Source: Candidatus Pacearchaeota archaeon
Lineage (GTDB): Archaea > Nanobdellota > Nanobdellia > Pacearchaeales > GW2011-AR1
Assembly: GCA_050303855.1 (NCBI GenBank)
Contig: JBNLCO010000010.1
Coordinates: forward strand, 124,093-188,092
DNA length: 64,000 nt
Direction: 5' to 3'
Each line of letters starts with the position of its first letter. Within the stretch, counting starts at the first letter, position 1. Under the pieces are notes generated by a model. It saw only the letters and a list, made by a program, of their open reading frames with translations. It had not been told where the DNA came from and made no database searches. This document shows positions 20,650 through 53,075 of this stretch, one piece after another. Made by a program: the position numbers and the translations under genes.

Positions 20650-21636
20650 ATGGAACCCTTAATTGCAATAACAATTTTTGCGAGTTTTTTTTGCTCATTT
20701 TTGATAACACCCCTTTGGATAAGGAAAGCCAAGTCTTTAGGGTTAACAGGTAAAGATATTCACAAGAAAAAATCTGAAGAGGTAGCAGAAGGGGGAGGAG
20801 TAGGTATCTTGTTTGGATTTACAATAGGCGTTTTACTTTATGTTGCAATAAATACGTTCTACTTTAACAATACTACCAAACTTACAGAAATATTTGCTTT
20901 ACTTTGTGTTATATTCATAGGGTCAATTGTAGGAATAGTTGATGATTTGACTGGATGGAAAAAGGGGTTGAGTAGGAAGATAAGAATTGCGATAGTTGTA
21001 TTTGCTGCAATTCCTTTAATGGTTATAAACGCGGGGGAATCTTCTATACTTGGAATAAATCTGGGCATATTCTTCCCATTGATAGTTATACCTCTTGGGA
21101 TTGTTGGGGCGACAACAGTTTACAACACTCTAGCTGGATACAATGGTCTTGAAACTTCGCAAGGTATGCTTTTACTTGGAGCTTTGGCTTATATTACATA
21201 CATTACGGGAAACCCTTGGTTAAGTGTTGTTGCATTGTGTATGGTTGCTGCTCTTCTTGCATTCTACTTTTTCAATATGAATCCTGCTAAAATCTTCCCA
21301 GGAGATATTACAACATACTCAATTGGGGCTCTATTTGGGGGGATTGCTATAATTGGAAATGTAGAAAAAATAGCTTTGTTCTTTTTCATACCCTATATAT
21401 TTGAGATCATATTAAAGATCAGAGGTAAATTGGAAAAGGAGAGTTTTGGTAAATTAAACCAAGATGGAGAAAGTCTTGATTTGAGGTATAATAAGATATA
21501 TGGTCTTGAACATCTTGCTATAAAAATATTAAAGAAAGTCAAGAAATCTGGAAAAGCATACGAAAACGAAGTGGTCTGGTTGATAAATGGTTTCCAATTA
21601 TTAATAATTATTCTTGGACTTTTGATATTCTTTTAA
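20650..21636 (+). CDS. aglH: UDP-HexNAc:dolichyl-phosphate HexNAc-1-phosphate transferase (GT4 MraY/WecA/AglH family)
   Basis: Polytopic membrane protein with ..IVGIVDDLTGW.. and ..NTLAGYNGLETSQG.. motifs of the GPT/MraY family. Confidence 0.75.
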   Translation: MEPLIAITIFASFFCSFLITPLWIRKAKSLGLTGKDIHKKKSEEVAEGGGVGILFGFTIGVLLYVAINTFYFNNTTKLTEIFALLCVIFIGSIVGIVDDLTGWKKGLSRKIRIAIVVFAAIPLMVINAGESSILGINLGIFFPLIVIPLGIVGATTVYNTLAGYNGLETSQGMLLLGALAYITYITGNPWLSVVALCMVAALLAFYFFNMNPAKIFPGDITTYSIGALFGGIAIIGNVEKIALFFFIPYIFEIILKIRGKLEKESFGKLNQDGESLDLRYNKIYGLEHLAIKILKKVKKSGKAYENEVVWLINGFQLLIIILGLLIFF

Positions 21637-21673
21637 TAAAAAAGGTTTTAAATGATCATTATTTATCAAGAAG

Positions 21674-27589: not shown

Positions 27590-28612
27590 ATGTCATTTTT
27601 TGAGGTTCTTATGGATTTAACAAATGAATATTTGAATAAAAAAGTATTGATTACAGGCGGTGGCGGCTTTATTGGAAGCAACCTTGCAATAAAATTAGTA
27701 GAATTAGGCGCAGAAGTTTCGGTAATGGATTCGAAATTAAAGCCTTATGGGTTTAATTTGTTTAATCTTGATCCAGTGTTGGATAAAATAAATATAGATT
27801 ATTCGGATATAAGGGATAGAAATGCTGTTGAAAGGAATATTGCTGGACAAGATATAATCTTTAATTTGGCTGCACAGGTAGGTGAAAAAGTAGGAGAGGA
27901 AAATCCTTTTTTAGACTGGGACATAAATGTTAGAGGGCACATGGAAGTATTAAATGCATGCAAAAACAAAAATAAAGAAGCAAGAATAATATTTCCAGGT
28001 TCAAGGTTACAATATGGTAAGACAAATGGGGCAGAGATAATTTCTGAAAGCCACCCCATGAACCCCTTAACTAATTATGCCAGAAACAAAGTCGTGGGGG
28101 AAGAAATGTACCAAAAACTTAACAAAGAGGGTTTAGAAACGGTAACATTTAGAATTGCTAATCCTTTCGGTCCTCGTGCATCAATTAATAATCCTGGTTA
28201 TTGTATTGTCAATTGGTTTATTGGTAGGGCCTTGGATGGAAAAGATTTACCCATTTATGGAGAAGGGTCTCAGGCAAGAGATTATATTTTTATAGAAGAT
28301 TTAACAGATGCTATGGCAATCGCAGGAGTCCATAAAAATTCTCCAGGAAACACTTACAATTTAGGGTCAGGCCAGAAGACTTTATTCAAAGATATGGCTG
28401 AGAAAATAGTTGCACTTTCAGAAAATAATTATTCAAAAATAAATTTTGTTGAATGGCCAAAAGATGCAAAAGAAAGAGAGACTGGAAATTTTGTCGCAGA
28501 TATCTCAAAGATAGAAAGAGAATTGGGTTGGAAGCCTAAGTATAGTTTAGAAGAGGGTCTGAAAAGAACAATTGAATTTTATAGAGAAAATAAGAACAAT
28601 TATATTGGATAA
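27590..28612 (+). CDS. NAD-dependent sugar-nucleotide epimerase/dehydratase (extended SDR)
   Basis: TGGGGFIGSNL Rossmann motif. YxxxK region present. Confidence 0.7.
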   Translation: MSFFEVLMDLTNEYLNKKVLITGGGGFIGSNLAIKLVELGAEVSVMDSKLKPYGFNLFNLDPVLDKINIDYSDIRDRNAVERNIAGQDIIFNLAAQVGEKVGEENPFLDWDINVRGHMEVLNACKNKNKEARIIFPGSRLQYGKTNGAEIISESHPMNPLTNYARNKVVGEEMYQKLNKEGLETVTFRIANPFGPRASINNPGYCIVNWFIGRALDGKDLPIYGEGSQARDYIFIEDLTDAMAIAGVHKNSPGNTYNLGSGQKTLFKDMAEKIVALSENNYSKINFVEWPKDAKERETGNFVADISKIERELGWKPKYSLEEGLKRTIEFYRENKNNYIG

Positions 28613-28694: not shown

Positions 28695-29279
28695 ATGGAA
28701 GATCAAGAAAGTAAAGTTTATTTTTCGATTGGGGAGAGTATAAATGCAAAAAAATCTTTTTATAGTCGCCCAAAAGATCTTGTTGATATTTCAAACAAAA
28801 TTTATGAGTCTTTAAATAAAGGTCAAAAAATACTTGTTTTTGGGAATGGAGGTAGTGCGGCAGATGCACAACACATTGCAGGAGAGTTAGTTGGAAGGTT
28901 TAAGAAAGAACGTAAAGCTTTAGCAGCAATGGCTTTAACCACAGATACATCCGTAATAACATCATTATCTAATGATTATGATTATTCAAAGGTATTCGAG
29001 AGGCAAATTGAAGCATTTGCTAGGGAAGGAGATATTTTATGGGGAATTTCAACCTCAGGAAACTCGGAAAACGTTATTAAAGGTCTTGAAAAAGGAAGAG
29101 AAATAGGCACTTATAATTTTTCTATGACTGGTAAAGATGGAGGCATAGTAAAGAAATTAAGTGATTTTAATATAAATATTGATTCTAAAAACACTCCAAG
29201 AATTCAGGAAGCACATCAATTGGCGTACCATATTATTTGCGAATTGGTTGAAGATAAAATATATCATAATAATCTTTAA
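28695..29279 (+). CDS. gmhA: SIS-domain sedoheptulose-7-phosphate isomerase (GmhA-like)
   Basis: ..ILVFGNGGSAADAQHIAGELVGRF...GISTSGNSENVI.. GmhA signature. Confidence 0.7.
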   Translation: MEDQESKVYFSIGESINAKKSFYSRPKDLVDISNKIYESLNKGQKILVFGNGGSAADAQHIAGELVGRFKKERKALAAMALTTDTSVITSLSNDYDYSKVFERQIEAFAREGDILWGISTSGNSENVIKGLEKGREIGTYNFSMTGKDGGIVKKLSDFNINIDSKNTPRIQEAHQLAYHIICELVEDKIYHNNL

Positions 29280-29305: not shown

Positions 29306-30286
29306 ATGGTAAGAAATCTTATAACAGGCACTACAGGGATGGTGGGTTCTCATTTGGCAGAATTTCTTTTGGACAAAGGGGAAGAAGTTTATGGAACACG
29401 TCGTTGGCGAAGTAGGATGGATAATTGTAGAGGATTTGAGGACAAAATAAATTGGGTGAATATGGAATTAATTGACGCCCATTCTGTTAGAAATGCTATT
29501 GAAAGTGTAAGACCTGATGTGATCTATCATCTTGCTGCACAAAGCTATGTTGTTGATTCAAAAGATGAGCCTGTAGCCACAATGGAAATTAACGCCCATG
29601 GAACTGCTCATATTCTTGAAACCGTGAAGGAAATGAAGAAAAGAGATGGGTACAACCCTGTTATTCATGTTTGTAGTAGTAGTGAAGTTTATGGGCAGGT
29701 GAATCCGGACGAAGTTCCAATAAAAGAAACAAACCAATATCGACCGGCCTCTCCTTATGCGATAGGAAAGCTAGGAGCAGATATGCTTGCTAGGTGGTAT
29801 TTTGAAGAATATGATCTGAAGACGATACGTACAAGAATGTTTACTCATACAGGGCCAAGAAGAGGGGATGTTTTTGTAGTTTCAGCTTTTGCCAAACAAA
29901 TTGCAAAAATTGAGAAAGGATTACAAAAACCAAAATTAAAAGTAGGTAATCTAGAATCTGTTAGGACTTTTGCAGATGTTAGAGATACTGTGCATGCATA
30001 CTATCTCTTAACTAAGCATTGTAAGCCTGGAGAAGTCTATAACATAGGAGGAAATAGAACAATGAAGATTGGAGAGATGTTGGATATCCTTTTAAGCTAC
30101 TCTCCAATGAAAGATAAAATAGAAGTTGAAGTGGATCCGAATCTTCTAAGAAAAACTGATGTAACATATCAAATACCCGACACATCTAAGTTCAAAAAAG
30201 AAACCGGATGGGATAGCCCAATTCCTCTTGAGAAGACTTTAGAAGACACCCTAGACTATTGGAGAGGGGAATTTAAGAATGAGTAA
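29306..30286 (+). CDS. nucleotide-sugar 4,6-dehydratase (GDP-mannose 4,6-dehydratase-like extended SDR)
   Basis: ITGTTGMVGSHLAEFLL..., RPASPYAIGK, ..FTHTGPRRG.. resemble Gmd/4,6-dehydratase motifs. Confidence 0.65.
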   Translation: MVRNLITGTTGMVGSHLAEFLLDKGEEVYGTRRWRSRMDNCRGFEDKINWVNMELIDAHSVRNAIESVRPDVIYHLAAQSYVVDSKDEPVATMEINAHGTAHILETVKEMKKRDGYNPVIHVCSSSEVYGQVNPDEVPIKETNQYRPASPYAIGKLGADMLARWYFEEYDLKTIRTRMFTHTGPRRGDVFVVSAFAKQIAKIEKGLQKPKLKVGNLESVRTFADVRDTVHAYYLLTKHCKPGEVYNIGGNRTMKIGEMLDILLSYSPMKDKIEVEVDPNLLRKTDVTYQIPDTSKFKKETGWDSPIPLEKTLEDTLDYWRGEFKNE

Positions 30287-31349
30287 AGAAGTAAAAGTAA
30301 AATTAAATCATTTTTCTGGGGAATATGAAAATGATGAAGAGTATTATGAGAAATATTGGTCAATTAAAGTTTTGTTAGATAATTTTAATGTAAAAATTGT
30401 AGATAATGTGAAAGAGGCGGATGTTATATTTGAACAGTGTACAAGAGGAAGTAATTATAATTTTTTAAATGAAAAGAATAAAAAAATAGTGCTCTTTTCT
30501 TCAGAAGATCTATATAAAAAAAGAGATATTTTTAATTTAATAGAATCCTTTCTTTATAAGGTAGGATTGGGGGATAAAAAGTGGAAAATTATAGATAAAC
30601 TAGATAGTATTATTCCTTCAAGTATCTCAAGCATTCCATTGAAATATTTTCTACCAAAACATTTGAAGTTTGTGAGAAAAATTTCAGAAGGAAAAATAAA
30701 AAATGCATACGCAATTGTTCAAAATGATATAAAAGGGGAAAACATCTTGATAATTCCCTGTTTCTTGCATGTTTTTTATTATAATTTGAAAGATTTCACA
30801 AAAAAGAAAAAACAGGAATCAAGTAAAAGGAAGAAATTTTGTGCGTTTATTGTATCTAGCAATTCCTCTAGGGAAAGGGTTAAATTTTTTAAGAAATTGT
30901 CCAAATACAAGAAAATTGATTCTTATGGAAGGGTCATGAATAATATGGGAGATAGTATTTTTAATGGCCACTGGAGTGGAACCCACCCGGAGATATATAA
31001 AGACTATAAATTCGTGATTTGTTTTGAGAATAGTTTTACAAAAGAGTATATTTGTGAGAAATTGCCTAGGACTATGCTTTCTGGAGCAATACCTATATTC
31101 AGAGGTGCTCCAAACATTGGAGAATATTTCAATAAAAAATCTTTCATTAATTATGATAATTATGGAAGTTATGAAAATATGATAAAGAAAATTATTGAGT
31201 TGGATAGTGATGATAAAAGATATGAATCATTCCTAAGAGAACCTTGGTTCAAAGATAACAAGATTCCAAAGATATTTAGAGATAAAGAGAAAGAATTAAT
31301 TCAATTTTATACCAAGATTTTTGGACCTCCAAAGAGAAAATTAAAATGA
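30279..31349 (+). CDS. GT10-family alpha-1,3-fucosyltransferase-like glycosyltransferase
   Basis: ..YKFVICFENSFTKEYICEKL.. matches the GT10 FucT motif (YKFxLxFENS...YxTEK). Confidence 0.5.
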   Translation: MSKEVKVKLNHFSGEYENDEEYYEKYWSIKVLLDNFNVKIVDNVKEADVIFEQCTRGSNYNFLNEKNKKIVLFSSEDLYKKRDIFNLIESFLYKVGLGDKKWKIIDKLDSIIPSSISSIPLKYFLPKHLKFVRKISEGKIKNAYAIVQNDIKGENILIIPCFLHVFYYNLKDFTKKKKQESSKRKKFCAFIVSSNSSRERVKFFKKLSKYKKIDSYGRVMNNMGDSIFNGHWSGTHPEIYKDYKFVICFENSFTKEYICEKLPRTMLSGAIPIFRGAPNIGEYFNKKSFINYDNYGSYENMIKKIIELDSDDKRYESFLREPWFKDNKIPKIFRDKEKELIQFYTKIFGPPKRKLK

Positions 31350-32002
31350 ACAATATTTTTTATGGAATACTTTCTGTAGGGTTTGACATCGATCAAACAA
31401 TGTACGCAAAAAATAGTGAAATAGACTTAATTATTCAAGATGAAATTGCGAGGAAGATTCTTGAAATAAAACCTTCTTTCAATAATCTTGAATCAGCAAA
31501 AGAATTTTCTGAAAGAAGATATTCTGAATTAGGGAGCCGAACAAGTGTGTTAGAAGAGGTTGGCTATAAAAATGCTCAAGAAATCTTGTACGGATGCATT
31601 TCAAGTGATAAAACAATAAACCCTCTCCAGAAAGACGAAAGGCTTCAGGAAATGATTTCAAGATTGGGACATAAATATGATCTTTTTTTAATAACTAATA
31701 ATTCGGAGGATATTGCGACTAAAAAATTAGATCGATTAGGTGTTGACAAGTCTTTATTTAACCTAAAATTTTATGGAGACACATTACCTGGAATAAAAAA
31801 ATCTGATGGTTCTTTGTTCAAATATTTCCTAAGTAGGTCCAAACATTCCCCTGAAAACCACATATATGTCGGAGATAGCCTTAATGCAGACATAATCCCT
31901 TCTAAAAAGCTAGGTTTCAAAACAATTTGTGTAGGAAATCACTTTCTTGAAGCGAATTATTCTGTTAAAGAAATTTATGATATAGAAAATCTTCTTCTAT
32001 AA
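31346..32002 (+). CDS. HAD-superfamily hydrolase (candidate heptose-bisphosphate phosphatase)
   Basis: DxDxT-like ..GFDIDQTM.. N-terminus. Context next to GmhA/HddA. Confidence 0.4.
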   Translation: MNNIFYGILSVGFDIDQTMYAKNSEIDLIIQDEIARKILEIKPSFNNLESAKEFSERRYSELGSRTSVLEEVGYKNAQEILYGCISSDKTINPLQKDERLQEMISRLGHKYDLFLITNNSEDIATKKLDRLGVDKSLFNLKFYGDTLPGIKKSDGSLFKYFLSRSKHSPENHIYVGDSLNADIIPSKKLGFKTICVGNHFLEANYSVKEIYDIENLLL

Positions 32003-32061: not shown

Positions 32062-33849
32062 ATGAAGTTAGCAGATTATGTTATTGATTATTTTGGAGAT
32101 AAGGGAGTGAAGGATATATTTGAGGTCTATGGTGCTGCGAATGGTGATTTGATTGATGCTTTTACGAGAACAGATAAAACAAGATATGTTGCTATAATGC
32201 ACGAACAAGCTGCAGGGTTTGCTACAGAATGTTATTCTAAGATCAGCGGTAAGCCAGGTGTTGCGATAGCCACAAGTGGCCCTGGAGGCCAGAATTTTGT
32301 GACTCCAATTGCAAATTGTTATTATGATTCTGTTCCGGCAATTTTTATAACAGGTCAGGTAAACTCCAGATTTTTAAGGCCTGATGAAAGTATAAGACAG
32401 AGAGGATTCCAAGAAACCCCTATTGCAGAAATTGTTGCTCCCATAACAAAATATTCTAAAATGATTACAGACCCAAGCACAATAAAACATGAACTTGAAA
32501 AAGCATGGTATATTTCCCAAGAAGGAAGACCAGGCCCAATTCTTCTTGATCTTCCGATAGATATTCAAAAAGCGGAAGTAGATCCGTCAAAACTATTTGG
32601 GTTTAATTCAGAAACTTATAAAACCAATTTTAATATGGAACAGGTTAATAACCAGATAGACCACTATCTTGAAGACTTGTCCCGTGCTGAAAGACCAGTT
32701 ATTCTTGTTGGAGGAGGAGTAAGACCTTCAGGAGGAATAGAAAAACTTCTGAGTTTGGGAGAGAAATTAAAAATTCCGATGTTCCCCACATGGAATTCAT
32801 TAGATATTGTTACTTCTGATTACAATTACTATGGAGGAAGGGTTGGAACTTATGGCGGAAAAGGAAGAAACTTTGGTTTGCAGAACTCCGATTTAGTTTT
32901 GGCTTTGGGAAGCAGAATTTCTGGAAGACTTTATGGAAGCCAGACAAAGGCTTTCTTAAGAGATGCAAAGAAATATGTAGTAGATATTGATAAAGCTAAC
33001 TTACAACAAATATTCCAAGAAGTTCCCTTTGACGAGAACATTTTTTGTGACGCGAAAACTTTTATAGAAAGTTTAGATAAAAAGTTGGAAGGTGTTCCTA
33101 AGAAAGATTTCTCTTCATGGACAAGTAAAGTTATGGGTTGGAGAAACAAGTATGACCCTGTAAAGAAAGAATTTTTTGAGGCTAATGAGAATGCAAACCC
33201 CTATGCTTTTTTTAGAACACTTTCTCAAGAAATGAAATCTGGAGATATCCTTGTGGGAGACTGTGGGGGAAATATTGTTGTTGCTAGTCACGCTTTTGAA
33301 ACAAAGAAAGGGCAAAGATTCATTACAAATAATGGAAACTCCCCTATGGGATTTTCATTTTCAGGAGCCATGGGGGCCTACCTTGCTGCAAATGAAGGCC
33401 AAAATGTAGTTTGCACGATTGGAGATGGAGGTTTCAATATGAATATCCAAGAACTACAAACTTTAAAGAATTATGATCTAAATTTCAAGACATTCATAAT
33501 TAACAATGGAATTTATGGTATCACTAAAGCATTCCAAGAAAAGAAGTTTGAGGGTAGGGCTGAAGCATGTGGTCCAAAAGGCTATGTTCCTCCTAATTTT
33601 ATGGCCATATGTGATGCTTACGGAATTAAAACCGAATCTATAAAAGGAAATGATATTGATAGCATGAGAGAGAAAATTGGAGATGTTTTGAATTCAAAAG
33701 GTCCTGTTGTGTGTGATGTAAGTTGTCCAGACTGGCATACTTACGAACCAACAGTTTTTGGATCAGTCCCAATCGAAGAAATGCACCCTCAGTTGCCTGA
33801 AGAAGAATTCAGAGAAAATATGATTATAAAACCTTGGAAAAAGAAATAA
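32062..33849 (+). CDS. thiamine-diphosphate-dependent enzyme (acetolactate-synthase/YerE-like)
   Basis: 595 aa. Pyr domain (..AIMHEQAAGFATECYSKI..), central domain, PP domain with ..GDGGFNMNIQEL.. ThDP-binding motif. Confidence 0.75.
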   Translation: MKLADYVIDYFGDKGVKDIFEVYGAANGDLIDAFTRTDKTRYVAIMHEQAAGFATECYSKISGKPGVAIATSGPGGQNFVTPIANCYYDSVPAIFITGQVNSRFLRPDESIRQRGFQETPIAEIVAPITKYSKMITDPSTIKHELEKAWYISQEGRPGPILLDLPIDIQKAEVDPSKLFGFNSETYKTNFNMEQVNNQIDHYLEDLSRAERPVILVGGGVRPSGGIEKLLSLGEKLKIPMFPTWNSLDIVTSDYNYYGGRVGTYGGKGRNFGLQNSDLVLALGSRISGRLYGSQTKAFLRDAKKYVVDIDKANLQQIFQEVPFDENIFCDAKTFIESLDKKLEGVPKKDFSSWTSKVMGWRNKYDPVKKEFFEANENANPYAFFRTLSQEMKSGDILVGDCGGNIVVASHAFETKKGQRFITNNGNSPMGFSFSGAMGAYLAANEGQNVVCTIGDGGFNMNIQELQTLKNYDLNFKTFIINNGIYGITKAFQEKKFEGRAEACGPKGYVPPNFMAICDAYGIKTESIKGNDIDSMREKIGDVLNSKGPVVCDVSCPDWHTYEPTVFGSVPIEEMHPQLPEEEFRENMIIKPWKKK

Positions 33850-34479
33850 TTAAATTAATATTTTCTCTAATTCGTTTATAAATTTCTTTGAACCTTTACG
33901 AACTATTTTTTTATCTAAATAATTTTCTTCGGTATTGAGAACTAAATAGGAAACAAAATCAACCCCTGGATATTTGAAGTCAAGGTCTATATCTTCCCAG
34001 TACTTTGCTGTTTTATCCCAAACAGATACGTCTGAAGGATCTGAGATAAGTCCATCTGAAGGGGGCCTAGATTTCATTCTTTTCTTTGCTTCAGCCTCAG
34101 AACAAACACATTCTACAACAATTACATTCTTTCCTGCACCCGAAGCTACACCATAAATCTGTTGTCTTCTAAAGGTATGTCTATTTACGCTATCGATTAT
34201 TACCCCTTTCCCTTTGGTTAAATAATCCATTGCAGTCCGATCAATAAGCCTTAAAGTTTCTTCTTGTTTCTTTGGCATTTTTTTTAGTCCTAAATTACGT
34301 CTTACTTCGTTTTGAGAAATATATTCATAATTTTGGAGGCCTTTAGCCAATTTAGCAGAAGCACTAGTTTTACCTGTACCGGGGAAACCAGTCATCAAAA
34401 TGAGGTAATTTTCCATATAACCCCAATTTTTATTTAATTTAAATAGATTTATGTCTTTGTTTAGAATGTTTTCTTCCAT
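33850..34479 (-). CDS. P-loop NTPase/kinase (AAA_33-like)
   Basis: Walker A GFPGTGKTS. ~200 aa. Confidence 0.45.
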   Translation of the reverse strand: MEENILNKDINLFKLNKNWGYMENYLILMTGFPGTGKTSASAKLAKGLQNYEYISQNEVRRNLGLKKMPKKQEETLRLIDRTAMDYLTKGKGVIIDSVNRHTFRRQQIYGVASGAGKNVIVVECVCSEAEAKKRMKSRPPSDGLISDPSDVSVWDKTAKYWEDIDLDFKYPGVDFVSYLVLNTEENYLDKKIVRKGSKKFINELEKILI

Positions 34480-35128
34480 CTAAAATGAGTTCAGATTTTT
34501 TTTCTTTGTATGCAGCAAATATTTCTTCTGAAACATATTTTGGATCCATGGAGTTTTCTCTACCAGGTCGAGTTCTTATTCTAGTTGGATAAACTCCCAT
34601 CACATGTATTCCGTTTTCAATTGCTTCCAAATTTAAGCTATCTGTGAAACCCTTAAGCCCGTATTTGCATGCTGAAGCCACGCTACGAAACTTTTTGCTT
34701 TCAAGGCCCATTATTGAGTTAATATTTATGATTGTTCCAGAGTTCTTCTTTAAAAAAAGAGGATAAATTTCCTTAGATAATTTTATTGGAGCATATAGAT
34801 TTGTTTCGAGTAATTCGTCTACTGTTTCTCTGGATATTTTATCTAAGGGTAAACCAGGACAAAAAACCCCTGCATTATTTACTAAAATTGACAAGTCTTT
34901 TTTCTCTGCAATGTTTGCCAAGTCCTTAATAGTCTTCTCGGATCTTAAATCTCCATAAACCACTTCCACCTTTGACCCGTATTTTAGTATTTCTCTCTGA
35001 GAATCATTTAAGCTAGTTTTATCCCTTCCATGGATTATTAAATTGTAACCTTCTCTTGCAAAAGTTAAAGCTAATTCCTTTCCAAGACCTTTGCTAGAAC
35101 CAGTTATCAGAACAGATTCTTTTTTCAT
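34439..35128 (-). CDS. short-chain dehydrogenase/reductase (classical SDR)
   Basis: ITGSSKGLGKELA cofactor motif. ..NNAG.. and YxxxK regions. Confidence 0.7.
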   Translation of the reverse strand: MKKESVLITGSSKGLGKELALTFAREGYNLIIHGRDKTSLNDSQREILKYGSKVEVVYGDLRSEKTIKDLANIAEKKDLSILVNNAGVFCPGLPLDKISRETVDELLETNLYAPIKLSKEIYPLFLKKNSGTIININSIMGLESKKFRSVASACKYGLKGFTDSLNLEAIENGIHVMGVYPTRIRTRPGRENSMDPKYVSEEIFAAYKEKKSELILDGRKHSKQRHKSI

Positions 35129-35132
35129 TTTT

Positions 35133-36044
35133 TTAATTCGAAGAATTTTTTGAATACCAATCCAAAGTTTTTACAATACCTTCTTCAAGCGGGACTTTTT
35201 GAGACCACCCAATTTCATTTGCTTTGGTACAATCTAAGGATAGATTCATCTTAATCGTAGGTTTTGTTGTATCATGCTCAATTTTCAAATTCTTTCCGGA
35301 GGCATTAATGATCTTCTTTGTTAAGTCATTAACTGGTACTTGCTCTCCAGATCCAACATTATAAACCCCATCAAGTTCTTTTTCAAGAGCAATTTCCACA
35401 AAATCTACAAAATCAGAAACATACAAGAAATCTCTTTTTTCTTTTCCATCTCCCCAAATTACAATGCTTTCTCCGTCTGGAGTATTAGTAACTTCATTAA
35501 TTTTTGCTGCAAAAACATGAGAAGTAGCCAAATCAAAATTATCGTTAGGTCCGTAAATATTGGAGTGTCTCATCACAGTATGTTTTGTTCTTCCCAATCC
35601 AGAATAAAAATTGCACATATTTTCAAGATAAATCTTTGTACCTCCTCCACCTGAATATTTTACATTTGGAGAAGTGGGATCTGTTTCCTTATGGGGTTTA
35701 TCGCTTGAAGGGTAAACATTTGTACAGCTTGGAAATATAAACTGTTTAACATTATTTTCAAAAGCACTTCTTAACAAAAGAGAATTCATTACTGCATTAT
35801 CGGTTACATGAATATAAGGCCTCTCTATTATATCTTTAACCCCTGTACTCGTAGCAGCCATTTGAATTATAACGTCTTGACCTTTTACTACCCTTTCAAC
35901 GTCTTCTTTTCTAGTTAAATCGGCATATACATCTGATTTATTTCTAAATCCAACTCCTGTAACATCATATTTATCTTTTAGTCTTTCATATATGTTACTT
36001 CCTAAGAATCCTGTTGCTCCAGTTATTAACACTTTCTTTTTCAT
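35133..36044 (-). CDS. NAD-dependent sugar-nucleotide epimerase/reductase (extended SDR)
   Basis: ITGATGFLGSNIYERL motif. Confidence 0.7.
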   Translation of the reverse strand: MKKKVLITGATGFLGSNIYERLKDKYDVTGVGFRNKSDVYADLTRKEDVERVVKGQDVIIQMAATSTGVKDIIERPYIHVTDNAVMNSLLLRSAFENNVKQFIFPSCTNVYPSSDKPHKETDPTSPNVKYSGGGGTKIYLENMCNFYSGLGRTKHTVMRHSNIYGPNDNFDLATSHVFAAKINEVTNTPDGESIVIWGDGKEKRDFLYVSDFVDFVEIALEKELDGVYNVGSGEQVPVNDLTKKIINASGKNLKIEHDTTKPTIKMNLSLDCTKANEIGWSQKVPLEEGIVKTLDWYSKNSSN

Positions 36045-36081
36045 TATATATCTTCCTTTACTTTTTACTTTTTATATTTTA

Positions 36082-37062
36082 TCATTCAAAGATATTATAT
36101 CTTTTATTTACAATATCTTTATTTTCTTTATACCAATCCATTGTTCTCCGAACTCCCTCTTCTAGAGATACTTTTGGATTCCATCCAAGAGACTTTGCTC
36201 TTGATACATCCATTAACCTTATTTTATCTCCTCTTGGCATAGAAGGATCCCATTTTATGGAGGGTTTTCCTTCAATGTTATTTACAATTATATTTGCTAA
36301 TTCTTTTATGCTCTTTCTTTCCCCTGATCCAAGATTTAAAGGGTAGTCTGGGCCTGGAGCCTTTTCTAAAGCCACAAGCATTCCTTCAGCAACATCCTCT
36401 GAATAAATGAAATCTCTTATTGGACTTCCATCTCCTCCTACTTTAAGGGGATTTTCTCCATCAACAGCCCTTTTTATCAATGAAGGTATTACCATTGCGT
36501 TATTCACATCAAAGTTATCAAAAGGCCCGTAGACATTTGCAGGTCTTACTATTGCTGTTTTATCCCACCCATGTTGAATTTTATATGCCCTTGCTTGTAA
36601 TTCACCAGATCTCTTTGCATAACCCCCAAACAAATCATTCTCGGAAGGAAGCGTTTTGAAAACGTCATCCTCTCTCAAAATTTCGGCAGGTTGATAAACA
36701 CCTATTGTGCTTGTAAACAAGAATCTTTCTGTCCCCTCTTTTCTAGCAGCTTCCATCAAATTTGTATTAAATTGGAGAACAGGAACAAGAAAATTAGCTG
36801 GTTTTTCCAAGGTCATTTTTGGAGAACCTTTTATTCCAAGAAGATTAAAAACATAATCCTGTCCTTCGCAAGCAATTTCACAGTTGTGATAATTGGTTAG
36901 ATCAAGTTTCAAATATTCTGAATTGGGATTTGCCCTTGAAGGATCATCCATTGAAACAACTCTTACATTTGCACCTTCCTCAAGAAGTCTATTTACTAGA
37001 GGCTTTCCAATAAGTCCGGTTCCCCCTGCGACAAGAACGTTTTTTCCCTCATAAAAACCCAT
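36082..37062 (-). CDS. NAD-dependent sugar-nucleotide epimerase/reductase (extended SDR, GDP-fucose-synthase-like)
   Basis: VAGGTGLIGKPLVNRL motif. Confidence 0.7.
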   Translation of the reverse strand: MGFYEGKNVLVAGGTGLIGKPLVNRLLEEGANVRVVSMDDPSRANPNSEYLKLDLTNYHNCEIACEGQDYVFNLLGIKGSPKMTLEKPANFLVPVLQFNTNLMEAARKEGTERFLFTSTIGVYQPAEILREDDVFKTLPSENDLFGGYAKRSGELQARAYKIQHGWDKTAIVRPANVYGPFDNFDVNNAMVIPSLIKRAVDGENPLKVGGDGSPIRDFIYSEDVAEGMLVALEKAPGPDYPLNLGSGERKSIKELANIIVNNIEGKPSIKWDPSMPRGDKIRLMDVSRAKSLGWNPKVSLEEGVRRTMDWYKENKDIVNKRYNIFE

Positions 37063-37173: not shown

Positions 37174-38304
37174 ATGGGAATTTCTTTTGGAGATTTGAGA
37201 GTCAGTAAGGAGTCTAGAAAACATCTTGAAGACTGTCTCAATAATAATATGATTTCTGGAGGAGATAAAGTGAAAATCTTGGAGGATTCTTGGGGAAAAC
37301 TTTTTGGATATAAATATAATGTTGCTATGGGTTCTGGAACAGATGCAGATATGGCTGCTGCAATGACTCTTTATGATACAGTGGAAGCCAAACCAGGTGA
37401 TGAGGTTATCGTTCCTGCTCTTGCATTTGCAGCCGTAGGGAATAGTGTAAGAGCTGCAGGTTTTACACCTAAATTTGTTGACATAGAAAGAGAAACATTA
37501 AACATCAACCCTGATTTGATTGAAGAAAAAATAACTCCAAAAACAAAGGCCATAATGGCAGTCCATACAATGGGAAAACCAAATGAGATGGACAAAATAA
37601 CTCAAATTGCAAACAAGTATAACCTAAGGGTTTTAGAAGATTGTTGTGAATCTCATGGGGGAGAATATAAGGGGAAGTTTTTAGGTAGCTTTGGGGATGC
37701 ATCTGCATTTAGTTTTTATGTTGCACACATTGTTTCTTGTGGTGATGGAGGCATGCTTTCAACAAACTCTGAAGAGATAAGCGATTTAGCCGATTCAGTA
37801 AAACACCACGGAAGAAAACCTAGAACAATTTATTTTGATCATCCAAGATTTGGTATGAATTTTAGGATGAATGCCTTGACAGCTTCCATAGGCATCCCCG
37901 AAATACAAAATTTTTGGAAGATTTTTGATAAAAGAAAAGGCAATTTGAATTATTTACTGGATTCAACAAAAGACCTTCAGGATTTTGCTTATTTTGTTAA
38001 GGAGGAACCTCATGAGGTTGTCTCTCCTCACGCTTTTAGTATAACTCTTAAAAATCCGGATCACGATTTCAAAGGATTGTATGCATTCTTAGAAAAAAAT
38101 GATATAGAATGTAAAAGAAACTTCGGGAGTATGCCAACACAGCATAAAGCTTTTGAATATCTTGGATACAAGAAAGGTGAATTTCCTGAAGCAGAGTATG
38201 TTGGAGATAATGGGTTGCATTTTGGAATCCATCAATTCTTAGAAAAGAGTGATTTAGATTATGCTTCAGAAAAAATCCACGAATATTTTAAAAAATTTAA
38301 ATAA
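37174..38304 (+). CDS. DegT/DnrJ/EryC1/StrS-family PLP/PMP enzyme, ColD/E1-type sugar 3-dehydratase candidate
   Basis: Family fold. Active-site motif reads SFYVAHIVSCGDGG with His where aminotransferases of this family have Lys. Confidence 0.65.
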   Translation: MGISFGDLRVSKESRKHLEDCLNNNMISGGDKVKILEDSWGKLFGYKYNVAMGSGTDADMAAAMTLYDTVEAKPGDEVIVPALAFAAVGNSVRAAGFTPKFVDIERETLNINPDLIEEKITPKTKAIMAVHTMGKPNEMDKITQIANKYNLRVLEDCCESHGGEYKGKFLGSFGDASAFSFYVAHIVSCGDGGMLSTNSEEISDLADSVKHHGRKPRTIYFDHPRFGMNFRMNALTASIGIPEIQNFWKIFDKRKGNLNYLLDSTKDLQDFAYFVKEEPHEVVSPHAFSITLKNPDHDFKGLYAFLEKNDIECKRNFGSMPTQHKAFEYLGYKKGEFPEAEYVGDNGLHFGIHQFLEKSDLDYASEKIHEYFKKFK

Positions 38305-38310: not shown

Positions 38311-39168
38311 TTATTTTTTAGAATCTAAAGATTGAATATAGTTCTTTATTTCATTCAAATTGTCTTCGGATATTTTGTAGAAAAGGTTTTCTTCGGGAAA
38401 ACTTCCAGATCTTATTTCGTTTACATAACTAGACAAACCTTTCTTCATTTCACTTCCAACATCTGAGAATTGTTTTACAAACTTAGCTTTTATTCCGCCT
38501 AAACCAACCACATCGTTAACTATTGCCAAGATACCGTCTACGTTTTTTCCAGCCCCGATTCCGTAAACAGGAATGTTCAAAGATTTTGCGATATATCCTG
38601 CAGGTTCATTTGGAACAGCTTCCAAAAGTATTGCGCAAGCTCCCGCGTCCTGTAATGCTTTTGAATCATTATAGAGGGTTTTGAATCCGTCTAAACTTTT
38701 TGATTGTACAACCCCCATTAGATCTGTTGATTGGGGTGTATATCCTATATGCCCTATTGTCGCTATCCCAGCATCTTTCAAGGCCTTTACTCTTTGAGTT
38801 ACTCTTTCTCCCCCTTCAAGCTTAACTGCATCAACACCTGCTTCTTTCATAAATCTTAATGCATTGAAAGTTGCATTTTCATTAGAAATTTGGTAAGAAC
38901 CTAAAGGCATATCCCCCACAATAAAAGTATTTGGAGCTCCTCTACGGACTGCTTTTGTTAACATGATCATCTCATCCATTGTTACTGGAATAGTATTTTC
39001 ATAACCTAGAAGATTATTTCCTGCAGAATCTCCAACAAGGATCATATCCACTCCAGACTCTTCAGCTATTCTTGCTGTTTGAAAATCATAAGAAGTTATC
39101 CATGTGACTTTTTCCCCTTTTTTTTTCATCTTTACAAGATCTCCGAGGGTTTTTCTCTTTCCTTCCAT
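38311..39168 (-). CDS. 3-methyl-2-oxobutanoate hydroxymethyltransferase (PanB) family protein
   Basis: ..ITSYDFQTARIAEESGVDMILVGDSAGNNLLGYENTIPVTMDEMI..VGDMPLGSY.. matches PanB family signatures. Confidence 0.65.
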   Translation of the reverse strand: MEGKRKTLGDLVKMKKKGEKVTWITSYDFQTARIAEESGVDMILVGDSAGNNLLGYENTIPVTMDEMIMLTKAVRRGAPNTFIVGDMPLGSYQISNENATFNALRFMKEAGVDAVKLEGGERVTQRVKALKDAGIATIGHIGYTPQSTDLMGVVQSKSLDGFKTLYNDSKALQDAGACAILLEAVPNEPAGYIAKSLNIPVYGIGAGKNVDGILAIVNDVVGLGGIKAKFVKQFSDVGSEMKKGLSSYVNEIRSGSFPEENLFYKISEDNLNEIKNYIQSLDSKK

Positions 39169-39394: not shown

Positions 39395-41440
39395 ATGAAA
39401 GCATTGATACTTGCAGGAGGATTTGGTACCCGACTTCAAGGGGTTGTTAAAGATGTTCCAAAACCAATGGCCTCTATTGCGGGAAAACCTTTTTTGGAGC
39501 ATCAGATACGTTATTTGAAAAGACAAGGAATTAACGAATTTATCTTGGGAGTTCATTATAAATCAGATGTCATAAAATCTTATTTTGGCAACGGTATGAG
39601 GCAAGATGTAAGCATAACTTATTCTGAAGAGGATTCTCCTCTTGGAACAGGGGGAGCAATAAAACTCGCGCAGAAATTCATTGACGGGCCATTTTTAGTT
39701 TTGAATGGGGACTCGTATACTGATTTGGATCTGGGCAAATTTATGAGATTCCATGAAAAAAATAATTCTGTTGCAAGCATGGTCTTGCAAAAAATGGAAA
39801 AGGATAATTCCCACTATGGAAATGTTGAATTAGAAGGGGATACAATAAAGAGATATTCCGAAAAAAAATCAGTTGGCAAAGGACTGTCCAATTCAGGAAT
39901 CTATTTATTTGATCAAGAGATATTTGACTACATTCCTGGATCTAAAAAGATTTCTTTGGAAGAAAGAGTGTTTCCTGAACTGGTAAAGAAGGGTGCTATT
40001 TCTGGATTTGTCAACAAAGGTTATTTTGTCGATATCGGAAGACCCGAGACCTATCTTCAATTTAAAAAAGATTTTATTGAGAAATTGCAATCTTCAAAAG
40101 ACATTATTTTAAGAGATGCTATAAAAAAGATGTATGAAAATGGTTCAGACATATTGTTTATGGTTAATGAAGAGAAAGAATTTCAAGGTTTGCTAACAGA
40201 TGGAATTATTAAAAGATACCTAATAAGAGGGGGAGAATTTGAAGCAGGAGTTGATGAAGCCATGATAGAAAAACCAGAAAGGATTGCTACAATAAAAGAC
40301 AGTGAGGATAAAATAAGAGGTTTCTTAAAAGAAGGGGTCAAGAATCTTCCAATACTGGACGAACAAGGAAAAATATACGATATTCGATTTAGAACCGAAG
40401 AGGTAAAAGGAGAAGAATATCCAACCATTAGAGGTAAAACTCCTTTGAGAATAAGTTTTGCAGGAGGCGGTACAGATATGCCCTATTTTTTTGAGAAATA
40501 CGGAGGGGCTGTAATAAGCACAACTATTGATAAGTATTGCAACATTACTGCAAAAAAAAGAGGGGATTCCAAAATCGTAATTAATTCGGATATTTTAGAG
40601 GAGGAAGTGATTTTGGATGCCGGGAATTTAAAATATGATAGAAGTAAATTTGATCTAGTAAAATCAGTATATAATCTTGTAAACCCGGGGTGTGGTGTTG
40701 ATCTCCATTTGAATAATGACGTACCTCCAGGAAGAGGTCTTGGTTCATCTGCATCATTTGCAGTTCTTTTAACTAAAATTTTGGGCAAGCTAAAAGGGAG
40801 TAATTTGAGTGATGAGGAAGTTGCAGAATTTGCTTATAGAGCAGAAGTTGAAGAATTGGGAATAAGAGGAGGCAAGCAAGATCAATACGCTGCAGTATTT
40901 GGAGGATTTAATTGGATGGAATTTGAAAATGGAAATAGAAAAATAATGACATCCCTTAGAATAAAAGAAGATACTTTGAATGAATTGAAAGATCATTTAA
41001 CTTTATGCTACACTGGCAAAGAACATGAATCAATCCATCAACAGAAGTTATTGGAAGACAAATTTAAAAAAGAGAACCAGAGTGCAATTGAAAGGCTAAA
41101 AAGAATGAAACTTAATGCACGAGAAATAAAGAATTATCTTCTATCTCCGACCCCCGATTTTCAAAGGATAGGCGAGATAACCCATAAAATCTGGACAGAT
41201 AAAAAGAAGACTTCTTCGAAAGTAACCAGCAAAGTTATTGAAAACCTTTATGAAGTGGGAATGACTAATGGATCATATGGAGGTAAGCTTTTAGGTTCTG
41301 GTGGGGGAGGCTACTTGTTATTTTTCCATCCTCCAGAAAAAAGGAACAAATTAGAGAGAGGATTATCTCAGGAAGGTGGAGAAATCATGAACTTCAATTT
41401 TACTGAAGATGGTGCCAAGATATGGGTTCCGAACAAATAA
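39395..41440 (+). CDS. Tri-domain protein: sugar-1-phosphate nucleotidyltransferase (HddC-like) + CBS pair + GHMP kinase (HddA-like heptose-7-phosphate kinase)
   Basis: N-terminal MKALILAGGFGTRL. Middle ..GLLTDGIIKRYL...LPILDEQGKIYDI.. CBS-like. C-terminal GHMP motif PPGRGLGSSASFAV. Confidence 0.7.
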   Translation: MKALILAGGFGTRLQGVVKDVPKPMASIAGKPFLEHQIRYLKRQGINEFILGVHYKSDVIKSYFGNGMRQDVSITYSEEDSPLGTGGAIKLAQKFIDGPFLVLNGDSYTDLDLGKFMRFHEKNNSVASMVLQKMEKDNSHYGNVELEGDTIKRYSEKKSVGKGLSNSGIYLFDQEIFDYIPGSKKISLEERVFPELVKKGAISGFVNKGYFVDIGRPETYLQFKKDFIEKLQSSKDIILRDAIKKMYENGSDILFMVNEEKEFQGLLTDGIIKRYLIRGGEFEAGVDEAMIEKPERIATIKDSEDKIRGFLKEGVKNLPILDEQGKIYDIRFRTEEVKGEEYPTIRGKTPLRISFAGGGTDMPYFFEKYGGAVISTTIDKYCNITAKKRGDSKIVINSDILEEEVILDAGNLKYDRSKFDLVKSVYNLVNPGCGVDLHLNNDVPPGRGLGSSASFAVLLTKILGKLKGSNLSDEEVAEFAYRAEVEELGIRGGKQDQYAAVFGGFNWMEFENGNRKIMTSLRIKEDTLNELKDHLTLCYTGKEHESIHQQKLLEDKFKKENQSAIERLKRMKLNAREIKNYLLSPTPDFQRIGEITHKIWTDKKKTSSKVTSKVIENLYEVGMTNGSYGGKLLGSGGGGYLLFFHPPEKRNKLERGLSQEGGEIMNFNFTEDGAKIWVPNK

Positions 41441-41442
41441 AA

Positions 41443-42314
41443 TGAATAATAATAAATCCAAGAAATTTGATTTGAATACTCCTGTTTTATTTTTAGTATT
41501 TAATCGATTAAATTCTACAAAAAAAGTTTTTGAAGAAATTAAGAAAGCTAAGCCAAAAAAAATATTCATAGCTGCAGATGGGCCTCGGAATCAAGAAGAA
41601 AAATCTAAGACAGATTCTGTTAGAGAATATATTATAAAAAACATTAAATGGAAATGTCAGGTCAAAACTCTTTTTCGGGAAAAAAACCTTGGTTGCAAAT
41701 ATGCAGTATCTTCCGCGATTGATTGGTTCTTCAAAAATGTTGAAAGAGGGATTATATTAGAGGATGATTGTTTGCCTAACCAAAGTTTCTTTAGATTTTG
41801 TCAAGAAATGCTTGAAAAATACAGGGATAACGAGAAAATAATGCATGTTTCAGGGACCAATATTGAAGAAGTCTCAAAAATTCCAGAGAGTTATTTCCTC
41901 TCAAGATGCACCAACGTTTGGGGATGGGCTACATGGAGAAGAGCTTGGAAAGATTATGATGTTGAAATGAGAAAATGGCCAATTTGGAAAATAAAAATTC
42001 TTGGTCTGATGAAAAATTATGGACTATTTAACAAAATAAAATCTTGGAGGTTGTATGAATTAACTTATAGAAATAAGATAAATACGTGGGACTACCAATG
42101 GGATTTCTTATGTAGAATAAAAAAAGGACTAAGCATTGTTCCAAAGGTTAATTTGATAACCAATCTCGGTTTTATTGAAGGAACCCATACAGTCAATTAT
42201 CAAAAAAATGAAAAAACATTAAAGAGGAGAGAGCTAAAATTCCCTTTAGAATCCAGAAAAATCAATATTTTGGAAGAATATCAGAAGAAATATTTTAGAT
42301 TCTTTGGGAAATAA
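41443..42314 (+). CDS. putative glycosyltransferase (HlpA-like nucleotide-diphospho-sugar transferase fold)
   Basis: ..VLFLVFNRLNSTKKVFEEI...ILEDDCLP.. pattern. Start at the TAAAATG junction. Confidence 0.4.
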
Positions 42315-47585: not shown

Positions 47586-48980
47586 CTACCCTCTATTTCT
47601 TCTCCGAGAATAAATTATACCCACAAAATAAATTAGTCTGCTTGCTATCGTAGCGAAACAAGCTCCAAGTACTGCTTGAAACATTCCAGGGGGACCAAAG
47701 AAGCCATGATTTAAACCATAAGTTATTCCGAAATAGTTAAACCCAATATTAAAAATTGTACTTACGATTAGAAGCTTTGCAATTACACTTGTTTTCTTTT
47801 GTGAAATCATATAGTTATCGTATATTCCTGAAATCGGAAGTAAGAAAATTATAGCCGCTAGAAGTTTTAGGATAGGAACGGCTGTCAGATATTCTGAACC
47901 ATAAGCAATTTTAACAACATAATAAGCGATAAAATAAGTTATTATTGCAGATAAAAATGCGATTAGGAAAGTTATATTTCTAGATTTCTTAAATAATCTT
48001 TCTAGAGATCTACCTTCAAGTTTAGCAAATAAAGGGAATAGTGCTGCAGCAGTAAAACCGATTATTGCTGTGGCAGAACCCACCAAACTAAATGCTGCCC
48101 CATAATATGCTATAAATTCTTCTGAAACAAAATGTCCAAGCATAAGAGTATCAATATATCCAAAAAACACTCCCGAAAGGGCTGTGACCGTTAAAGGGAG
48201 AAGGAATTTCTTTACTTCTTTTACTTCTTGTTTATCTAATTTTCCAGCTTTCCCTTTTACGAAAGAGACTTTCTTCCTTGCCATGAGGGCAAATATGAAG
48301 AGACTAATTGCATAACAAATCGTTAAAGAAAGTAAAACAAGTGCTACAACGGTTCCATTTGATAAACTTGTCTTTAGCAAGAACAAAATAGTCAAAGGAA
48401 CAATTGTCAATCTTAGGGTCTGAAATATTATTTCCTTTACAAGAGGCATCTTGAAATTATTTGTTGCTTTAAAAGACTGCTCAAAGAAATTTAGGAATCC
48501 TACAATTGGTATATAAAGGCCTCCTACCAGCAAAGCATAGAATATTGGTTTGTTATAATATCCATTTGCAACAAAATAAGCACTTGCTAGGAGAACTAAG
48601 GAGCACACTGTGGTTAAAACAAATTTCCATCTTAATAAGGTTCTGAAATATTTTTTAGCTTTTTCTAGATCTTTTCTTCCAAGAACTTTAGAAATAAACG
48701 TGACAACGCCTGTTGATATCCCAAAATCAGAAAATGCAGAAAACAAAACAATTGTGGATAGTGCAAGTGAATAAAGGCCCATTCTCTCTGGCATAAGTAG
48801 TCTTGCAACGATTATTGTGAAAAAAAGTGATCCAAACTTAATTGTCAAATTTTCTGCTAATTGGTAACTAGAATTCTTTATAGCTTGTCCAGTGTTTCCT
48901 GAAAAATCTCTCTTCTTAAAACGCCTGAAAACATTTCTCGCATCTCCTTCTTCCTTTTCTAAAAAATCATCCATGAACAA
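47586..48980 (-). CDS. MOP-superfamily polysaccharide/oligosaccharide flippase (Wzx-like)
   Basis: 464 aa, ~12-14 TM, typical PST-family layout. Adjacent to GTs. Confidence 0.65.
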   Translation of the reverse strand: MFMDDFLEKEEGDARNVFRRFKKRDFSGNTGQAIKNSSYQLAENLTIKFGSLFFTIIVARLLMPERMGLYSLALSTIVLFSAFSDFGISTGVVTFISKVLGRKDLEKAKKYFRTLLRWKFVLTTVCSLVLLASAYFVANGYYNKPIFYALLVGGLYIPIVGFLNFFEQSFKATNNFKMPLVKEIIFQTLRLTIVPLTILFLLKTSLSNGTVVALVLLSLTICYAISLFIFALMARKKVSFVKGKAGKLDKQEVKEVKKFLLPLTVTALSGVFFGYIDTLMLGHFVSEEFIAYYGAAFSLVGSATAIIGFTAAALFPLFAKLEGRSLERLFKKSRNITFLIAFLSAIITYFIAYYVVKIAYGSEYLTAVPILKLLAAIIFLLPISGIYDNYMISQKKTSVIAKLLIVSTIFNIGFNYFGITYGLNHGFFGPPGMFQAVLGACFATIASRLIYFVGIIYSRRRNRG

Positions 48981-52975: not shown

Positions 52976-53075
52976 ATAAGCACAGAAAAACAAACTTCAG
53001 ACCCTATAAAAAAGTTTGGAATGTGGTCTGTAAAGACATAAATGTTTTTAAAATTGGGAGGGTTTGATAAAACCA

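Follow-up and report, generated by a model that had tools for sequence, protein, structure and literature searches.

What is a gene for an enzyme of vitamin B5 synthesis doing in an archaeal glycan locus? The question is raised by a stretch of 64,000 nucleotides from Candidatus Pacearchaeota archaeon (assembly GCA_050303855.1, contig JBNLCO010000010.1, positions 124,093 to 188,092 of the forward strand), hereafter called the window. At positions 38311..39168, on the reverse strand, it encodes a protein of the PanB family (3-methyl-2-oxobutanoate hydroxymethyltransferase, also called ketopantoate hydroxymethyltransferase, KPHMT). A preliminary description of the locus had proposed that this lone PanB hydroxymethylates a nucleoside diphosphate (NDP)-4-keto sugar directly. 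We conclude instead that PanB belongs to a conserved module of two genes, the other of which encodes a YerE-like carboligase that depends on thiamine diphosphate (ThDP). As far as sequence comparison can tell, PanB was probably recruited from pantothenate metabolism to nucleotide-sugar tailoring, where it would act with the ThDP enzyme by supplying the donor for a branched sugar.

The panB open reading frame (ORF) starts with ATG, encodes a full-length protein of 285 amino acids and occupies exactly the positions given above. The Pfam model PF02548 (Pantoate_transf) spans the protein from end to end (E = 1.4e-91, 307 bits at a cut-off of 28.7 bits, profile positions 2-259 of 259). The scores also lie above the curated NCBIfam cut-offs of the panB equivalog TIGR00222 (253 versus 207.6 bits) and of NF001452 (305 versus 272 bits). 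Solved PanB structures from M. tuberculosis (1oy0, 220 bits), N. meningitidis (1o66, 174 bits) and E. coli (1m3u, 169 bits) align over the full length, and ordinary bacterial PanBs are 40-55% identical. The equivalents of E. coli D45, S46, D84, K112, E114, H136 and E181, numbered by counting along the 1m3u alignment, are all kept and reside in the motifs GDS, GDMP, KLEGG, GHIG and LLEAVP. The same seven residues are kept in every ThDP-paired PanB homologue described below. From the structure papers on the E. coli and M. tuberculosis enzymes, we take these residues to act as Mg2+ ligands, in carboxylate binding and as the general base. Judged by alignment, the active site is thus an intact 2-oxoacid/Mg2+ site with unchanged carboxylate-, keto- and Mg2+-binding residues. 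A phosphoenolpyruvate (PEP) mutase identity was rejected, as the weak Pfam match of 22.7 bits is below the cut-off and reflects superfamily similarity only. The sequence evidence for the PanB fold is unambiguous, and Pfam, the curated cut-offs, the structure alignments and the conserved residues together confirm the family call of the preliminary description. Its coordinates were likewise confirmed, as was the divergent layout of panB and the kinase/nucleotidyltransferase gene, an NTP-transferase/GHMP-kinase fusion (39395-41440) separated from panB by a 226-bp intergenic gap. On its other side, panB converges with a gene of the DegT family (37174-38304). Both PanB and the ThDP enzyme have their closest named relatives in metagenome-assembled genomes (MAGs) of Nanoarchaeota, Pacearchaeota and Nanoarchaeia; together with the archaeal marker genes of the window, these relatives point most likely to a DPANN archaeon.

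Within the window, panB is indeed alone, as described earlier: tblastn with Pfam-verified queries gave no match to PanC, PanD or PanE in the 64 kb (E <= 1e-3), and among 50 of the larger ORFs, Pfam recognised no pantothenate or coenzyme A (CoA) gene. The gene that does accompany panB became apparent from a sample of PanB loci drawn from genome, metagenome and viral scans, in which 125 distinct loci were scored by tblastn. Pfam-verified ORFs from a Staphylococcus locus served as PanC, PanD and PanE references. A locus was counted as paired if a ThDP gene was located within 6 kb of PanB and as pan-linked if PanC, PanD or PanE occurred within 10 kb; for comparison, we used the 49 unpaired loci whose flanks reached at least 3 kb on each side. 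In close relatives (PanB 56-68% identical), PanB always lies inside a glycan locus and almost always next to a gene for a ThDP enzyme of 565-606 amino acids that resembles acetolactate synthase (ALS). Such an ALS-like gene is present within 6 kb in 26 of the 125 loci, mostly at a distance of up to 500 bp and in either orientation. In four loci (individual loci carry L numbers), the two reading frames even overlap, by 4 nt in L058 and L144, 13 nt in L060 and 1 nt in L146. None of the 26 paired loci has a pan gene nearby, as opposed to 31 of the 49 unpaired ones (Fisher p = 1.1e-8).

The association also holds in the reverse direction. All six sampled homologues of the window ThDP enzyme (61-78% identity) are accompanied by a PanB gene; they derive from an archaeon, a member of the Nanoarchaeia, an Oligoflexia bacterium, a Liptonbacteria bacterium of the candidate phyla radiation (CPR), a TARA marine contig and another MAG. 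PanB is adjacent in five of them, with overlapping frames in two; in the sixth it belongs to the same AglB locus, at a distance of about 12 kb. This sixth case is the P0003 genome, which had seemed the sole exception to the pairing. With a Fisher p of 1e-8 and a PanB gene in six of six reverse tests, chance co-location fails as an explanation, and we conclude that PanB and the ThDP enzyme constitute a conserved pair.

A neighbour-joining tree of 108 PanBs placed all paired sequences in one clade that lacks any pan-linked member, and the PanBs of Bathyarchaeota fell elsewhere. The clade also includes unpaired PanBs of Terriglobia and Elusimicrobia, which occur in unrelated contexts. Since the paired PanBs form a single clade, are free of panC/D/E linkage and branch away from the Bathyarchaeota proteins, a role in sugar tailoring rather than CoA synthesis is probable. 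To that extent the earlier proposal stands, whereas its specific mechanism, direct hydroxymethylation of a sugar, is not supported.

The partner in the window is encoded at 32062..33849 on the forward strand and comprises the domains TPP_enzyme_N, TPP_enzyme_M and TPP_enzyme_C. Among PDB entries, it matched JanthE (8rph) best with 311 bits, followed by 5ahk (273 bits), plant acetohydroxyacid synthase (AHAS; 242 bits) and E. coli AHAS I (213 bits). Entry 5ahk is, we presume, PpYerE. With the ALS equivalog TIGR00118, the enzyme reached 365 bits, below the cut-off of 538 bits, and it also remained below every other acetolactate synthase cut-off. Three divergent partners from other paired loci, only 31-37% identical to the window enzyme, had 8rph or 5ahk as top PDB match, which led the best true AHAS by 50-75 bits. 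Because the window enzyme and all three divergent partners match 8rph or 5ahk best, the PanB partner appears consistently to be a YerE-class carboligase, nearer to the ketone-accepting YerE-like enzymes than to AHAS. JanthE itself is a characterised YerE-like enzyme that accepts ketones (PMC12188165).

Pfam scans of the window ORFs did not turn up ilvN/H, ilvC or ilvD in the locus. A true acetolactate synthase feeding 2-oxoisovalerate to PanB was rejected on these grounds, namely scores below the ALS cut-offs, YerE-like structures as nearest matches and no ilvN, ilvC or ilvD nearby. The nearest type among solved structures is represented by YerE of Yersinia pseudotuberculosis (yersiniose A), JanthE and PpYerE, and, as in the YerE case, a 3,6-dideoxy-4-keto sugar pathway is co-located. 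YerE uses pyruvate as donor, and its cluster lacks a donor-making enzyme, whereas the window family is coupled to PanB in every sampled context.

The predicted acceptor pathway centres on the DegT-family protein encoded at 37174..38304 on the forward strand (PF01041, 276 bits), whose top PDB match is E1 (3bcx). It carries a His at the position of the Schiff-base Lys, the motif 'SFYVAH' aligning with 'SFYPAH' of E1; the same position is K in the variant entry 3bb8 and in the aminotransferase 7b0m. As His replaces the Schiff-base Lys and E1 is the closest structure, we assign the protein to the pyridoxamine phosphate-dependent sugar 3-dehydratases of the E1/ColD type. E1 is the CDP-6-deoxy-4-hexulose 3-dehydrase, and E1/ColD-type enzymes make the 4-keto-3,6-dideoxy sugar that is accepted by YerE-type enzymes. 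The window ThDP gene therefore shares its locus with genes of an NDP-4-keto-3,6-dideoxy sugar pathway, consisting of the His-type dehydratase and short-chain dehydrogenases/reductases (SDRs) that resemble 4,6-dehydratases. A DegT-family gene is present in 11 paired loci and is of the His type in 10 of them, although most of the proteins are just 25-33% identical to that of the window.

The genes for sugar activation, by contrast, differ among loci. L079 and L100 possess a CDP-hexose-style set of a small nucleotidyltransferase, a 4,6-dehydratase and an E1-type gene of about 440 amino acids, to which L079 adds an E3-like flavin reductase gene. A GHMP-kinase/nucleotidyltransferase set is found in the window, L143, L144 and L145, accompanied by SIS_2 in the window and L145. 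The pair thus stays constant while the sugar-activation pathway varies, which links PanB to the ThDP-dependent reaction rather than to any one sugar.

The closest precedent for such an arrangement is provided by the erwiniose, caryophyllose and gastriose clusters (ErwE/ErwI/ErwF, MMAR_2332 and MyGE/MygI/MygF), for which a 'unifying scheme for acyl-branched sugars' has been put forward (PMC9306805). ErwE, MMAR_2332 and MyGE obtain gamma-hydroxy-2-oxoacid donors from an aldolase encoded next door; ErwE accepts 4-hydroxy-2-oxobutanoate but rejects pyruvate, and a YerF-like reductase subsequently reduces the branch (PMC9306805). The window locus and these clusters have in common a YerE-like ThDP gene beside a gene for a known or, in the window, proposed gamma-hydroxy-2-oxoacid maker, glycosyltransferases and an NDP-4-keto-3,6-dideoxy sugar pathway with an E1/ColD-type dehydratase; the NAD(P)H reductases of these clusters have candidate counterparts in the window. 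They differ in the donor maker, which is a BphI/HpaI-type pyruvate aldolase in the erwiniose-type clusters and, by our proposal, PanB here, a C1-transferring enzyme (PF02548) of the isocitrate lyase/PEP-mutase superfamily. Pfam scans of the window ORFs found no aldolase in the locus, and the aldolase-equivalent position beside the ThDP gene is held by PanB in 26 + 6 loci. Further differences concern the hosts of the PanB/ThDP pair, which are DPANN archaea, CPR bacteria and other uncultivated lineages, the GDP-heptose-like scaffold genes of the window (SIS, GHMP kinase, ColD-like) in place of CDP-glucose-like ones, and the setting in an archaeal AglB locus instead of a lipopolysaccharide O-antigen locus.

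PanB of E. coli makes 3-substituted 4-hydroxy-2-oxoacids from a range of 2-oxoacids and does so folate-free with formaldehyde (PMC7610986, PMC7611260). As PanB products are 4-hydroxy-2-oxoacids, like the ErwE donors, PanB is most likely a supplier of the donor and not a direct sugar hydroxymethylase. The erwiniose logic, in which an aldolase-made 4-hydroxy-2-oxoacid feeds a YerE-like enzyme (PMC9306805), also explains the PanB/ThDP pairing better than direct hydroxymethylation of a sugar would. Canonical PanB/KPHMT (EC 2.1.2.11; 1m3u, 1oy0) belongs to the same family as the window protein, matches it over the full length and has identical catalytic and ligand residues, and the chemistry most likely shared is enolisation of the Mg2+-bound 2-oxoacid followed by C1 addition at C3. 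In contrast to the canonical enzyme, the window type of PanB is free of panC/panD/panE linkage, has a YerE-like ThDP gene as constant companion and falls in a neighbour-joining clade devoid of pan-linked loci.

Taken together, we infer the following order of steps, with alternatives for the 2-oxoacid, the C1 donor and the product. In the first step, C3 of a 2-oxoacid would receive a C1 unit through PanB, with methylene-tetrahydrofolate (or an equivalent) or free formaldehyde as its source. The resulting 4-hydroxy-2-oxoacid, PanB's proposed contribution to the pathway, could be ketopantoate if derived from 2-oxoisovalerate or 4-hydroxy-2-oxobutanoate if derived from pyruvate. The ThDP enzyme would then decarboxylate this donor and attach the acyl-anion equivalent at C4, the keto carbon, of an NDP-4-keto-3,6-dideoxy sugar, which the neighbouring kinase/nucleotidyltransferase, 4,6-dehydratase and His-type 3-dehydratase are predicted to provide. 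In a third step, an SDR may reduce the branch carbonyl in the manner of YerF, and the C4-acyl- or hydroxyalkyl-branched sugar would finally be built into an AglB-dependent glycan. Because PanB performs a C1 transfer, we predict a side chain that is one hydroxymethyl carbon longer than those of the erwiniose type. In organisms that lack folate, PanB may work as a folate-independent aldolase.

Several points weigh against this donor-supply model. The distance between the panB and ThDP genes is 4.5 kb in the window, where they also occupy opposite strands, and about 12 kb in the P0003 genome, and the PanB tree is a neighbour-joining tree without support values. We know of no branched sugar with a PanB-derived side chain, and the model does not say where a reduced archaeon would obtain the 2-oxoacid and the C1 donor. 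It also leaves the recurrent AAA_33 kinase, HAD hydrolase and B12-radical-SAM companions unexplained. Finally, a comparison of paired with pan-linked PanBs singled out the E. coli positions 21, 179, 208, 212 and 214 (W21, L179, V208, L212, I214 in the paired proteins), of which positions 212 and 214 determine the substrate scope of E. coli KPHMT. As evidence for a new specificity, this active-site signature had to be discarded: L179, L212 and I214 also occur in unpaired PanBs of the free-living Neomoorella, Symbiobacterium and spirochaetes, the rest is common to the unpaired Terriglobia and Elusimicrobia PanBs within the clade, and W21 is missing from the PanBs of L144-L146. No residue thus separates paired from unpaired PanBs, which makes the signature a lineage marker and not a demonstrated change of specificity.

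Gene pairing by itself fits equally well an order in which PanB acts after the ThDP enzyme. The YerE-like enzyme would set an acetyl branch from pyruvate, as in yersiniose, and PanB would hydroxymethylate the methyl group beside the ketone to yield a 3-hydroxypropanoyl branch. We presume that the pair of tertiary hydroxyl group and ketone could chelate Mg2+ like a 2-oxoacid, and the analogous order, with the aldolase acting after branching, needed experimental exclusion in the case of ErwE (PMC9306805). In that characterised precedent, however, the donor came first. Moreover, S46 and K112 for carboxylate binding, and indeed the whole 2-oxoacid site, are invariant, and an identity of 40-55% to ordinary bacterial PanBs leaves little room for remodelling the site to accommodate a bulky NDP-sugar. 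We therefore consider this order unlikely.

The companions that the donor-supply model leaves aside would find a use if the activity of the ThDP enzyme were limited to decarboxylation or carboligation of the PanB product. After reduction and phosphorylation, the latter by the AAA_33 kinase, the resulting aldehyde or acyloin, for example hydroxypivaldehyde, would decorate the glycan as a non-sugar substituent, and no C-C branch would be formed on a keto-sugar. An AAA_33 kinase, a HAD hydrolase and an adh_short dehydrogenase do recur beside the ThDP gene and are otherwise unexplained, and the pair in L145 has just a kinase, a nucleotidyltransferase and a SIS gene within its 12 kb. This route is nevertheless quite improbable in our view: the ThDP partners are nearest to ketone-accepting YerE-like enzymes, and the His-type 3-dehydratases, the classic makers of YerE acceptors, accompany the pair in 10 of the 11 DegT-carrying loci.

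An ordinary role of PanB, in which it makes ketopantoate for pantothenate and CoA and sits in the glycan locus incidentally, would agree with a protein that passes the panB equivalog model and has an unchanged active site; the unpaired Terriglobia and Elusimicrobia relatives in the clade, with their unrelated contexts, may be such ordinary PanBs. For the paired proteins we deem it very unlikely, as the association with a YerE-like enzyme survives locus rearrangement in archaea, CPR bacteria, Oligoflexia and marine samples, reading frames overlap, and not a single paired locus is linked to a pan gene. Least probable of all is the mechanism favoured by the preliminary description, a direct PanB-catalysed hydroxymethylation beside the keto group of an NDP-4-keto sugar that yields a C-hydroxymethyl branch independently of the ThDP enzyme: PanB does reside in a glycan locus near enzymes that make 4-keto sugars and has no pan linkage, but the 2-oxoacid/Mg2+ site is unchanged, the sugar scaffold differs among loci while PanB stays, and the invariant YerE-like partner (26 loci, six of six reverse tests) would be left unexplained.

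The locus into which the module is embedded extends over about 28 kb, between the genes for SecY (16267) and SecDF (49025-51432). It contains an initiating phosphoglycosyl transferase (Glycos_transf_4; PF00953, 99.5 bits) and an AglB/STT3 oligosaccharyltransferase (PF02516, PF21436), encoded together at 20650..24415 on the forward strand, which identify it as an archaeal protein-glycosylation locus. Glycosyltransferases of the GT1, GT2, GT10 and WecG families, methyltransferases and an AsnB-like amidotransferase are also encoded, and a polysaccharide flippase gene (Polysacc_synt/MatE; PF01943, PF13440) at 47586..48980 on the reverse strand marks the right-hand end, with SecDF next. The glycan setting proposed earlier is borne out by the oligosaccharyltransferase, the GT4-family initiating enzyme, the flippase, the many glycosyltransferases and the sugar-nucleotide enzymes.

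Five SDRs belong to the latter, two of them 4,6-dehydratase-like. On the forward strand, an extended SDR resembling NDP-sugar 4,6-dehydratases/epimerases (27590..28612; Epimerase, 151 bits; GDP_Man_Dehyd, 150 bits) is followed by a SIS_2 sugar-phosphate isomerase of GmhA-like type (28695..29279; PF13580, 91 bits), which recurs in L052, L056 and L145, and by a GDP-mannose 4,6-dehydratase-like SDR (29306..30286; PF16363 GDP_Man_Dehyd, 256 bits), a candidate for making the 4-keto-6-deoxy intermediate. At the Pfam level, the three SDRs at 34439-37062, all on the reverse strand, are candidate branch-carbonyl reductases. They comprise a classical short-chain dehydrogenase that might be the YerF-like reductase (34439..35128; adh_short, 131 bits), an extended, Fcl-like epimerase/reductase (35133..36044; Epimerase, 152 bits; NF047922, 149 bits, below cut-off) and another Fcl-like SDR, a candidate sugar or branch reductase (36082..37062; Epimerase, 151 bits), which scored 147 bits with the GDP-L-fucose synthase model and thus below its cut-off. 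The sugar-1-phosphate nucleotidyltransferase/GHMP sugar kinase fusion divergent from panB (39395..41440, forward strand; NTP_transferase, GHMP_kinases_N, GHMP_kinases_C) matched best the models NF049969 HddA (246 bits) and NF049965 HddC (197 bits), both below cut-off. Its two parts occur as separate genes beside the PanB/ThDP pair in L144 and L145. Just downstream of the fusion gene, at 41409-42314, lies a conserved ORF of 301 amino acids without a Pfam match; ORFs of 286-290 amino acids with no Pfam match on record occupy the same position in L051, L052 and L143.

Two recurrent companions flank the ThDP gene of the window, a HAD_2 hydrolase/phosphatase (31346..32002, forward strand; PF13419), also present in L061, L143 and L147, and an AAA_33 P-loop kinase (33850..34479, reverse strand; PF13671, 64 bits), also present in L058, L061, L143 and L147. 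The adh_short gene adjoins the ThDP gene again in L061 and L143. Kinase, hydrolase and adh_short dehydrogenase can be regarded as a recurrent sub-cassette adjoining the ThDP gene (window, L061, L143, L147 and L058). A gene for a B12-binding radical SAM enzyme stands beside the pair in five independent loci (L056 8761-10524; L058 8081-9697; L144 7060-8562; L146 11836-13365; L147 14454-15953), and none was found in the window; the enzyme may further modify the branch or the sugar, for example by methylation. In L100, a class I/II aminotransferase gene (9319-10461) directly downstream of PanB could produce a 2-oxoacid from an amino acid. Split transketolase-like/E1_dh ThDP genes occur near the pair in L073 (12664-14416), L079 (9318-9872) and L147 (15960-17186), so that some variants of the pathway may include a second step that depends on ThDP.

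The scan of the viral collection gave a single match, which is identical to the metagenome locus L074. This locus (L074 = L142) is located on a 181-kb contig listed in IMG/VR as viral, yet in layout it agrees with a Pacearchaeota MAG contig (L007). Another contig, that of L060 (42.7 kb), harbours a terminase gene (weak match) and a phage portal gene, both within 13440-16660, 6.5 kb from the PanB/ThDP pair. The two contigs suggest either viral carriage of the module or misclassification.

Besides the glycan locus, the window, whose G+C content is about 33%, holds an archaeal-type ribosomal-protein/SecY block, an Rpb3-type RNA polymerase subunit, prefoldin, 5S rRNA and three tRNAs. The 5S rRNA gene (53264-53379) is solitary: the window contains neither a 16S nor a 23S rRNA gene. 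ARAGORN assigned no anticodon to the tRNA of 88 nt at 51444-51531 (Rfam tRNA, 57.5 bits), which may hold an intron. For seven ORFs of 188-396 amino acids, at 58526-63479 and 52105-54119, Pfam gave no match at E <= 1e-5.

Pathways that couple a YerE-like enzyme to an enzyme making its donor are known. The use of PanB for that purpose, the occurrence in an archaeal N-glycosylation locus and the wide spread of the module among uncultivated lineages appear to be new. Our literature search found no link of PanB/KPHMT to branched sugars and no discussion of panB in DPANN archaea. We see even chances that the widespread PanB and YerE-like module makes a new class of C4-branched surface-glycan sugars in DPANN archaea, CPR bacteria and marine bacteria, with a side chain that starts with a PanB-derived hydroxymethylated acyl group, for example 3-hydroxy-2,2-dimethylpropanoyl or 3-hydroxypropanoyl.

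If this holds true, it would represent the first role of PanB outside CoA synthesis and the first acyl-branched sugar pathway in Archaea. The ThDP route to acyl-branched sugars would be extended to Archaea and to protein N-glycosylation loci, with the donor supplied by C1 transfer instead of an aldol reaction, and the module predicts sugar structures without prior description. For biocatalysis, it would offer a natural PanB/YerE-like pair for tertiary alcohols with quaternary or hydroxymethylated side chains, a chemistry on which KPHMT and YerE engineering have so far been separate fields. Annotations invariably label PanB as a vitamin B5 gene. Should a whole PanB subfamily serve sugar branching, the 'partial pantothenate pathways' that automated reconstructions call in DPANN archaea, CPR bacteria and other reduced genomes would be misreadings.

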